Positions 4,146 through 4,872 of a stretch of DNA of 6,931 nucleotides are shown here, piece after piece. The translations under genes and the position numbers were made by a program. Below the pieces are notes generated by a model, which saw only the letters and a list, made by a program, of their open reading frames with translations, had not been told where the DNA came from and ran no database searches. The stretch comes from a virus. Its lineage: Duplodnaviria; Heunggongvirae; Uroviricota; Caudoviricetes. Every line of letters starts with the position of its first letter. Position 1 is the first letter of the stretch. Location: the IMG/VR virus record IMGVR_UViG_2529293078_000014, one strand, 5' to 3'.

Positions 4146-4655
4146 ATGAGTAATGACAAAAAATTGACACTGAGCGTTTACGAAAACAGTCCGCACATCT
4201 GGCGTGGCGGTTTATCTGATGTGGAGCTGGCAGAGTGGTTGATACATAAAGCTAATGCGCTGCTCTGGCGTTTGTCAGCCAGAGAACAGCGCAAGGAAAC
4301 CAGAATAAAGCTGGCTGATGCAGAAGCGTGTGCCGGGCTTATTGAGGATTATACAAATCTTGGTATTTCTTCAGCAGAGAGTGATCCCATTCAGCCTCTG
4401 AGCAGGGAGTCAATCCAGCACGCTGGTTGTATGGCACATCTTGTAACTGCTCGTCAACATGAGGTGGGTATTGGATCACTTCCGGCGGGATATTCGCTGA
4501 TTCCAGAGCTGGTTGAAGCAAGAAAATCAGTTCAGAAAAAGAGAGATGACGCACTTCAATTATTGAGAGAGCACTATGGCGCGATACCAGAATGCGAACA
4601 GCGTCGATACCCTGAAGGTTATGAATGGATGCAGTCTCTTTTTGAAGTTCGCTAA
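4146..4655 (+). CDS. Hypothetical protein (169 aa) inserted between the ydaT-like and replication genes; no recognisable motif
   Basis: Same strand as the rightward operon; E. coli-like codon choice (CTG, CGT, GCG, CCG). ATG at 4146 has only a weak Shine-Dalgarno (GGGT); the track's GTG at 4095 is an alternative. Strand is ambiguous: a 151-aa antisense ORF (4339..4794) with AGGAGG also exists. Confidence 0.5.
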   Translation: MSNDKKLTLSVYENSPHIWRGGLSDVELAEWLIHKANALLWRLSAREQRKETRIKLADAEACAGLIEDYTNLGISSAESDPIQPLSRESIQHAGCMAHLVTARQHEVGIGSLPAGYSLIPELVEARKSVQKKRDDALQLLREHYGAIPECEQRRYPEGYEWMQSLFEVR

Positions 4656-4872
4656 TCAATATGTCGAGACGAAGGTATGTTTCGGCGCGCAGCCAGGCTC
4701 TGTAATCCGGGAGCATTTCGGGGCTGTTACACCAGCGGTTTGTTGCTGCAACATTTAATACATGAGCCTGATAAAGGCTTTTCAAAAAATACATGTCGAA
4801 CCTCCTCTGGTTCTGTCGATTGGGAACCACAGATTATATCCGGAGGAAGGTTCGGCACCAGATGAGGTAGCC

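Follow-up and report, generated by a model that had tools for sequence, protein, structure and literature searches.

The stretch of DNA analyzed here, the 6,931-nucleotide (nt) IMG/VR virus record IMGVR_UViG_2529293078_000014 (the window), is 100% identical to E. coli O157:H7 chromosomes, where it corresponds to the immunity and replication region of the lambdoid prophage Sp4 of strain Sakai. We take Sp4 to be the same prophage as CP-933M of strain EDL933. Between the cII-like gene ydaT and the replication gene lies a segment (4146-4872, both strands) for which two long open reading frames (ORFs) on opposite strands compete, one of 169 amino acids (aa) on the plus strand and one of 151 aa on the minus strand. 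The segment is carried by about 460 of 5,426 complete E. coli genomes, nearly all at 99% identity or higher. An initial annotation made from the letters alone had placed a gene between ydaT and the replication gene, described both frames, and preferred the plus ORF. All the sequence features it listed for the two ORFs are present, the intervening gene is confirmed, and the strand ambiguity is real: the plus ORF matches the family phrog_8304, while the minus ORF matches NF033230 and is annotated by the Prokaryotic Genome Annotation Pipeline (PGAP). Comparative sequence analysis makes it very probable that two genuine coding sequences overlap antisense to each other at this segment.

The plus gene, called from its ORF, a profile match, and signs of selection, runs from ATG 4146 to the stop codon at 4653-4655 (plus strand) and begins 13 nt after the ydaT stop, within the rightward early operon; the ORF list also shows a longer version from GTG 4095. 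Its product (MSNDKK...) aligns with all 169 of 169 positions of phrog_8304 (E = 4.2e-120), a PHROGs family of unknown function, and the ORF lacks a RefSeq annotation in the records inspected. A profile search recovered homologs in 22 clusters at 50% identity or less, mostly of 146 to 163 aa. The start codon is conserved in most lineages, and the Shine-Dalgarno sequence (SD) ACAGGAG(G) in front of it is kept in most of the other lineages. The protein opens with the motif SPHIWRGGLSDVELAEWL, followed by a long helix, and both are encoded outside the overlap, whereas residues 65 to 169 are encoded antisense to the minus gene. AlphaFold2 (AF2) models residues 21 to 70 with a predicted local distance difference test (pLDDT) score of 90 to 96. 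The tail encoded in the overlap matches generic coiled coils only. It carries the motifs LGxSxxxxDPIxPLS and PxGYxxLPDL, with indel-rich linkers between them.

The minus gene, supported by a profile match and by PGAP, extends from ATG 4794 to the stop codon at 4341-4339 (minus strand) and encodes a 151-aa protein (MYFLKSLYQ...) of the ECs1072 family, NF033230. It scores 105.7 bits against this profile ("ECs1072 family phage-associated protein," a hypothetical equivalog), covering profile positions 3 to 141 of 142, and the curated NCBI cutoff is 70 bits. The ORF is PGAP protein WP_000273724.1, ECs_5703 in Sakai, and EDL933_RS32100 in EDL933. PGAP annotates it alone at the segment and applies the same family name in hundreds of E. 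coli genomes. We found 28 homologs of the minus protein in seven genera, and profile searches reach approximately 30% identity in Klebsiella, Enterobacter, Raoultella, Serratia, and Yokenella. Its AF2 model is a compact, all-alpha fold of about nine helices (pLDDT 90.4, predicted template modeling [pTM] score 0.87), including the part encoded in the overlap. The predicted fold has no match in the PDB or viral-model fold libraries searched, the PDB sequence profiles gave no credible match, and Pfam has no match for either protein. The N terminus of the minus protein, 46 residues with the most conserved motif of the family, PDYRAWLRAETYLRLD, is encoded by positions 4656 to 4794. The initial annotation had taken 4656 to 4872 as a 217-bp gap, and although the arithmetic holds, the gap is not empty, since 139 bp of it are minus coding sequence.

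At this locus (Sakai NC_002695.2, 1169360-1169815; EDL933 NZ_CP008957.1, 1256691-1257146), the tags ECs_1072 and EDL933_RS06155 are missing, and the tags of the minus ORF were issued late. Judging from tag numbering, an earlier gene call at the locus seems to have been replaced during re-annotation in both reference genomes. Since the current record contains no ECs_1072 tag, older data under the name "ECs1072," such as those of a microarray probe (PMC2241611), cannot be linked to either strand.

The two genes converge over an antisense coding overlap of 317 nt (4339-4655, both strands), in which the first codon positions of the two frames face each other and the second position of either frame faces the third of the other. 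Protein searches returned full-length homologs of both proteins down to approximately 50% identity, so that homologs support both strands rather than one. Both ORFs are open in the same frame relation in 11 to 15 lineages, reaching approximately 30% identity, in Escherichia, Salmonella, Klebsiella, Enterobacter, Raoultella, and Serratia. Read as DNA on both strands, the two frames are open across the overlap in the window and in the related loci L042, L002/L008, L003, L045 to L048, L052, and L054 to L056; in L045, the N terminus of the plus protein is missing. The ORFs are convergent with an overlap of 260 to 392 nt, and their frame relation is identical in all loci, which means that every indel is a multiple of three. 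Even opposite the most distant members of the plus family (L058 and L059), an ECs1072-family ORF is open on the other strand (E = 7.5e-36 and 1.5e-15, respectively).

We evaluated the open frames by simulation, holding the protein of each lineage fixed, redrawing synonymous codons from the codon usage of the window, and counting stops in the opposite frame (4,000 simulations). With the minus proteins fixed, 30.7 stops are expected in the plus frame across 11 lineages (simulation minimum, 17), and none is observed. With the plus proteins fixed, 33.5 stops are expected in the minus frame across 11 lineages (simulation minimum, 17), and again none is observed. The probability of zero stops in a single lineage, P(0), is 0.0025 to 0.30 for the plus frame and from below 0.0003 to 0.094 for the minus frame. 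Codon choices are close to independent among lineages because synonymous sites outside the overlap are saturated. Salmonella provides a natural control: in L006 and L007, the minus gene (49% identity) occurs without the plus gene, the plus head being replaced by another gene, and in L006 the equivalent plus frame across the minus gene is full of stops.

Substitution patterns indicate constraint on both strands. We estimated pS and pN, the proportions of synonymous and nonsynonymous differences, by the Nei-Gojobori method (NG86) with 95% bootstrap intervals. In the codons unique to the plus gene (2 to 63), pS is 0.712 (0.64-0.78) and pN is 0.343 in the plus frame; in those unique to the minus gene (2 to 46, inside the supposed gap), pS is 0.750 (0.69-0.81) and pN is 0.352 in the minus frame. 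In the overlap core, pS falls to 0.506 (0.44-0.57) in the minus frame, with a pN of 0.382, and to 0.443 (0.37-0.51) in the plus frame, with a pN of 0.392. Inside the overlap, pN is thus unchanged and pS collapses in both frames, and no bootstrap replicate reversed the order of minus pS outside and inside the overlap. By these patterns, both nonoverlapping heads are clearly coding and under purifying selection, which in the first 64 plus codons is strong and bears out the initial call of the plus ORF as a gene; the ratio of nonsynonymous to synonymous substitution rates (dN/dS) in the plus-only zone is 0.12 for the close pair of the window and L042.

The loss of synonymous change is the signature expected of a second constraint on the silent sites of the minus gene, which are the second codon positions of the plus frame. 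At minus codons with an invariant amino acid, codon diversity is 0.634 outside versus 0.371 inside the overlap (Mann-Whitney P = 0.005), and single codons are frozen, such as L97 (CTG in 11/11 lineages) and Q145 (CAA in 10/10). In pairs that include L006, where the plus gene is absent, minus pS in the overlap zone is 0.77 to 0.89. An OLGenie-style test within the overlap, in which N and S denote nonsynonymous and synonymous in the two frames, gave a pNN/pSN ratio of 0.81 (0.66-0.96) for the minus gene, which is significant and indicates selection on the minus frame. Single-nucleotide polymorphisms (SNPs) among close relatives amount to 19 in 31 loci, too few to discriminate. In one of these 31 near-identical IMG/VR loci, a C-to-A change at 4503 introduces a stop in the minus gene (E98*) and P120T in the plus gene.

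The minus gene has its own sigma-70-type promoter (4861-4833, minus strand), with the -10 element TATAAT at 4838 to 4833, a 17-nt spacer, and a weak -35 element, CTGGTG, at 4861 to 4856. The -35 element reads TTGGTG in other genera, and a -10-like hexamer stands at the same distance in other lineages. A generic promoter scan returned no sites, having missed this promoter because of its weak -35 element; we found it by eye, by conservation, and through a published transcription start site (TSS). From the sequence, we predicted a TSS near 4826. The Cappable-seq data (PMC10469882) place a minus-strand TSS at EDL933 1257177, equivalent to 4825 in the window and 7 nt downstream of the -10 element, and give it as the main gene TSS of EDL933_RS32100. 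It was detected in 6 of 8 uninduced EDL933 conditions with relative read scores of 19 to 52. The mRNA thus has a 31-nt 5' leader (4795-4825, minus strand) with the SD AGGAGG at 4806 to 4801, 6 nt before the ATG, and AGGAGGTTCGACATG of this leader is almost invariant across loci. GTG 4830 was considered as an alternative minus start and rejected because it lies upstream of the mapped TSS. In the same data set, the pR-type TSS of ydaS (EDL933 1255781, window 3429) has relative read scores of 0 to 22, and the minus TSS is the stronger in the seven conditions with comparable listed TSSs (PMC10469882). The part of the gene-TSS table covered here has no entry for the replication gene, and together with the pR-type TSS at 3429, this suggests that the plus strand of the segment may be transcribed as well.

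The minus strand has no terminator-like site between 4146 and 4338. The nearest is at 3969-3952, inside ydaT, and it is the only one downstream of the minus gene, so that minus transcripts may cover the entire plus gene in antisense orientation as well as the 3' part of the cII-like gene. An internal sense TSS within the minus gene (window 4421, minus strand; EDL933 1256773) is listed in 8 of 8 conditions with relative read scores of 8 to 69 (PMC10469882). RNA from this site would run antisense through the plus head into ydaT, in a manner reminiscent of lambda oop.

The remainder of the supposed gap, 78 bp (4795-4872), belongs to a conserved promoter and leader element, so what had been described as a long structured gap is mostly the 5' coding region, promoter, and leader of the minus gene. 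It does contain an imperfect palindrome (4795-4857, both strands), formed by the paired arms GTCGAACCTCCTCTGG and CCGGAGGAAGGTTCGGC, with the -10 element in the loop. Most of the inverted repeat as initially drawn is in place (CCTCC at 4801-4805, TCTGGTTC at 4806-4813, and GAACCACAGA at 4824-4833), with the correction that GGAGG is at 4842-4846 rather than 4843-4847. Folding of the region from 4783 to 4880 gives -34.7 kcal/mol for the plus strand and -32.5 kcal/mol for the minus strand, with z scores of -3.15 and -3.06, respectively, and for each strand only 2 of 200 shuffles fold as well. The inverted repeat is therefore more than chance. Both arms are kept in every related locus, and the 12 consensus pairs of the hairpin are almost invariant, leaving covariation neutral on a role as RNA. 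A search of Rfam at E ≤ 1 over window positions 3300 to 5200 gave no match.

The repeat had been proposed to sequester the ribosome-binding site of the replication gene, and the geometry does not bear this out. The main stem pairs 4798-4810 with 4840-4853 and does not reach the SD of the replication gene (GAGG, 4864-4867), only part of which is paired, in a small helix of its own, and CCTCC at 4801-4805 is the complement of the SD of the minus gene itself. The minus SD is free in the mapped mRNA, since the 31-nt leader lacks the distal arm of the palindrome. Transcripts from an alternative minus TSS at window 4958 would hold both arms and could thereby sequester the minus SD.

The palindrome is part of a conserved junction element of about 85 bp (4783-4867, both strands) that is followed by differing minus-strand cargo genes on one side and by differing replication genes on the other. 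Of about 55 other E. coli genomes, in which both flanks differ, most carry it at 89 to 93% identity, and one match is at 77%. It also occurs with different flanks in the phage PP818812 and can be placed at 3001-3083 in L049 and at 3001-3082 in L050 and L051. The element is recognizable from E. coli to Serratia, with TGGTGCCGAACCTTCC, a -10-like hexamer, and AGGAGGTTCGACATG preceding the minus gene in every genus. Its appearance suggests a shared promoter and leader or a recombination boundary for cassette swapping.

The gene pair is found in five phage contexts, and the minus gene always runs against the surrounding operon. In E. coli, the cassette occupies the junction of cII (ydaT) and the replication genes; in Salmonella, it lies in an int/Cox...ExoVIII early region; in Klebsiella and Raoultella, it lies between cro and the replication genes; it is present in Enterobacter; and in Serratia, it is flanked by the lysis genes and by terminase, with an Acb2/Tad1-like gene close by. 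The Serratia marcescens locus (L054, 3001-4419) has terminase Nu1 on the terminase side of the cassette, and one small gene lies between the cassette and a gene with an Acb2/Tad1-hairpin domain. This domain is of the anti-CBASS/anti-Thoeris type, and the neighborhood is one of accessory or counter-defense genes. The initial annotation had suggested that the plus gene could be a moron, for instance a defense or anti-defense gene. Mobility between unrelated phage contexts and an own promoter fit a moron, an own terminator is missing, and the defense idea gains nothing from PADLOC-DB 2.0, where neither protein matches any family at E ≤ 1.

The slot between ydaT and the replication gene is also used by other convergent pairs, and in these relatives the initiator does not directly follow ydaT. 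A gp12/gp13-type pair in this slot encodes 137 aa on the plus strand and 151 aa on the minus strand, with an overlap of 236 to 239 nt in the same frame relation, and shares the same leader element. It is found in L051 (2375-3008) and L050 (2375-2788) and is conserved in Salmonella L006 next to the ECs1072 homolog. The N-terminal motif of the plus family recurs in the gp12-type protein (hhalign E = 4.9e-5, probability 68%), and the minus-strand cargo proteins of the two cassettes are unrelated (hhalign probability 1.5%). A third convergent pair of 98 aa and 83 aa abuts without overlap in the same slot (L049, 2461-3009). A pattern scan of genome contigs gave no confirmed locus. The L051 record (PP818812.1, "Actinobacillus phage vB_Apl-pPE4") has an early region closely resembling that of E. 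coli lambdoid prophages, with a DicA-like repressor, ydaT, gp12/gp13, and a primosomal protein; its gp12 shares 99% identity with the gp12 of E. coli STEC307, and its junction element shares 92.7% identity with that of the window. The Actinobacillus host given for this record appears doubtful.

Taken together, we consider it probable that 4146-4872 is a mobile two-gene cassette with its control element, and nearly as probable, on comparative grounds, that the overlap-encoded tail of the plus protein is itself maintained by selection. Several observations weigh against these conclusions. The tail is poorly predicted by AF2 (pLDDT 50 to 78, pTM 0.36), the position of the plus stop is variable (125 to 169 aa), and among database entries of the plus family a small number are truncated or frameshifted, with 68 to 99 aa (P0044, P0059, P0060, and P0062). 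The OLGenie-style ratio for the plus gene, pNN/pNS, is 0.92 (0.79-1.10) and not significant, at sites near saturation, and close pairs are minus-dominated in the overlap, with a plus pN/pS of about 0.8. The product of the single-lineage P(0) values (about 1e-18 for the plus frame and at most 1e-17.7 for the minus frame) overstates the joint significance, as the lineages are not fully independent. Neither protein has functional homology in Pfam, PADLOC, the PDB sequence profiles, or the fold libraries, and neither gene has an intrinsic terminator inside the cassette. Because the frame-specific test for the plus gene is not significant, the case for selection on its tail rests on ORF maintenance and frozen silent sites. 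The truncated plus entries and the E98* minus variant may be occasional losses of either partner or sequencing errors.

These observations would be accommodated if both genes were real and only the first 65 or so plus residues mattered, the tail being unselected read-through and the overlap tolerated rather than maintained. The low pLDDT of the tail, the variable stop and short variants, and a pNN/pNS interval that spans 1 all point this way, as do the few SNPs of close relatives in the overlap, among which those synonymous in the minus frame (4) slightly outnumber those synonymous in the plus frame (2), and the N-terminal motif, which alone is common to gp12-type proteins and, weakly, to a 68-aa PHROG. 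However, an unselected tail should meet a stop within a few dozen codons: 1 to 4 stops are expected per lineage, and none occurs over 84 to 128 overlap codons in the 11 lineages. Minus synonymous sites are suppressed in the overlap only, which calls for a second constraint there, and the tail has its own two motifs. We therefore regard this explanation as rather unlikely.

We judge it more improbable still that the minus gene alone is real, as PGAP has it, with the plus ORF a shadow kept open by the minus protein sequence. PGAP and NCBIfam keep the minus ORF only; its TSS is mapped, its fold is predicted better, and its SD is stronger than that of the plus gene; and within the overlap, the test for selection on the plus frame does not reach significance. 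However, the minus gene does not extend over the first 64 plus codons, whose substitution pattern is clearly that of coding sequence (saturated pS of 0.71 versus pN of 0.34, and the low dN/dS of the close pair), the plus ATG and its SD are conserved in most lineages, and the plus frame is closed where the plus head is absent (L006). A shadow ORF should also have acquired the 30.7 stops expected from the fixed minus proteins. The opposite choice, that the plus gene alone is real, the minus ORF is a chance antisense frame, and 4656-4872 is a structured noncoding gap, was preferred initially because of the operon context, and the co-orientation of the plus ORF with the operon and the existence of phrog_8304 do speak for it. 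The plus gene stands, but the either/or choice does not: the minus ORF is at least as well supported, given its pLDDT of 90.4, its experimentally mapped TSS, its strong and conserved SD, and its stand-alone occurrence in L006. The minus-only codons in the supposed gap are under purifying selection and carry the most conserved motif of the family, the mapped TSS lies 31 nt upstream of the minus start, the SD is invariant, and the 33.5 expected minus-frame stops are wholly absent. We give this choice almost no credence.

If both genes are real, as we favor, the minus frame may be ancestral in the overlap and the plus tail overprinted on it, because the minus fold is confidently predicted and the plus tail is poorly modeled. 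The layout together with the TSS data also raises the possibility, which we advance only tentatively, that the overlap works as an expression interlock. The plus gene would be read within the rightward early operon of ydaS, ydaT, the plus gene, and the replication genes. The minus gene has its own promoter with the TSS at 4825, the 31-nt leader, and the strong SD, and the C-terminal two-thirds of each protein is encoded on the back of the other. In a lysogen, the repressor would silence the rightward promoter, and the cassette promoter would make the minus protein as moron-type cargo. After induction, strong rightward transcription would have to cross the cassette to reach the replication genes, making the plus protein on its way and silencing the minus gene by polymerase collision and by antisense pairing over at least 317 nt. 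As a model, we propose a lysogen-expressed cargo gene opposed by an early-lytic gene; that the plus protein might antagonize the minus protein is speculation.

A broader possibility, to which we assign a low probability, is that the window contains one member of a modular family of "back-to-back" pairs, in which a plus-strand tail would always be encoded antisense to a variable, lysogen-expressed cargo gene with the shared promoter and leader of about 85 bp. The overlap would then act as a built-in interlock: recombination could not separate the partners, and expression of one would exclude that of the other. Defense or toxic cargo of a prophage paired with its lytic-phase antagonist, a form of self-immunity, could be one instance. 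The plus-strand members of such a family would share a conserved N-terminal motif, SPHIWxGGLxxxELAxWL, or KPYINAGNLTPGELRDWIL in the gp12 type.

We compared the pair with known systems. NF033230 has a family name and no function, and its description mentions neither an antisense overlap nor a shared promoter and leader. Several antisense overlapping genes have been reported in E. coli O157:H7, namely ano, asa, pop, and oloz0137/4542/5029 (PMC5960689, PMC6294744, PMC7103648, PMC9927249). As in the present pair, coding frames on opposite strands share hundreds of nucleotides, and annotation pipelines suppress one of them. For the three oloz genes, Escherichia/Shigella alone yielded near-identical copies, and the distribution of their mother genes is wider; ano and pop are embedded in the host gene, and oloz0137 and oloz4542 overlap it partially (PMC5960689, PMC6294744, PMC7103648, PMC9927249). 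Unlike these genes, the partners described here meet tail to tail, are similar in size, both have free heads, occur in at least six genera, and move as one cassette. The present locus is not among the published O157:H7 antisense genes, which lie at other loci, and we found no description of the pair in the searchable literature.

Regulatory parallels exist as well. The oop RNA of lambda is a 77-nt noncoding RNA with its own terminator, transcribed from the promoter pO. The oop/pO unit and the cassette share a leftward promoter in a junction of cII-type and replication genes, firing against the pR transcript. Unlike oop, the leftward transcript here encodes a conserved 151-aa protein and has neither an Rfam match nor a terminator. 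Coliphages 186 and P2 use face-to-face promoter switches, and txpA/RatA and bsrG/SR4 are type I toxin-antitoxin systems with 3'-overlapping convergent transcripts. All of these are convergent units, often in prophages, whose overlap allows transcriptional interference or antisense control. They have short overlaps or a noncoding RNA, whereas the present pair consists of two proteins of 150 to 170 aa.

Long antisense coding overlaps in bacteria and phages are contested, and several reported overlapping genes are taxonomically restricted and supported mainly by expression data. The pair described here has the opposite profile, with deep evolutionary evidence (at least six genera, approximately 30% identity), a natural negative control, and a second, unrelated pair built alike. 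It offers a clean system for studying how two proteins coevolve on one DNA, whether overprinting yields disordered tails, and whether prophages use convergent overlap for regulation or linkage. The pair also reveals a systematic loss in annotation: RefSeq keeps the minus gene only, PHROGs has a family for the plus gene only, and each misses one protein across about 460 complete genomes of E. coli, the O157:H7 reference strains among them.

Upstream of the cassette, a helix-turn-helix (HTH) repressor (2941-3342, minus strand) comes before the ydaS-type Cro-like gene (3451-3723, plus strand), which is followed by ydaT, the cII-like activator immediately 5' of the plus gene (3707-4132, plus strand; PF06254, E = 1.2e-9; phrog_163, E = 4e-46). 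The TSS of the repressor (EDL933 1255694, window 3342) is the first base of its start codon (PMC10469882), implying a leaderless mRNA like that of lambda cI from pRM. A strong antisense TSS lies inside ydaS (window 3666, minus strand) and is listed in 8 of 8 conditions (PMC10469882). Downstream of the cassette are the replication protein, a DnaD-like helicase loader (4873-5964, plus strand; phrog_1701) preceded by its GAGG SD, and a DnaC-like ATPase (5971-6717, plus strand). A start for the replication gene at ATG 4762 (400 aa) was rejected: the PGAP start is 4873 with the GAGG SD, and 4762 lacks support and would overlap the 5' end of the minus gene. The replication protein contains a low-complexity acidic linker, QEQEQEQEKEQEQD (window positions of about 5340 to 5400), between its N- and C-terminal halves, and these halves are matched by different PHROG families, suggesting that the protein has two modules. 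Directly behind the prophage repressor and on the same strand lies a relE/relB toxin-antitoxin pair (2435-2913, minus strand).

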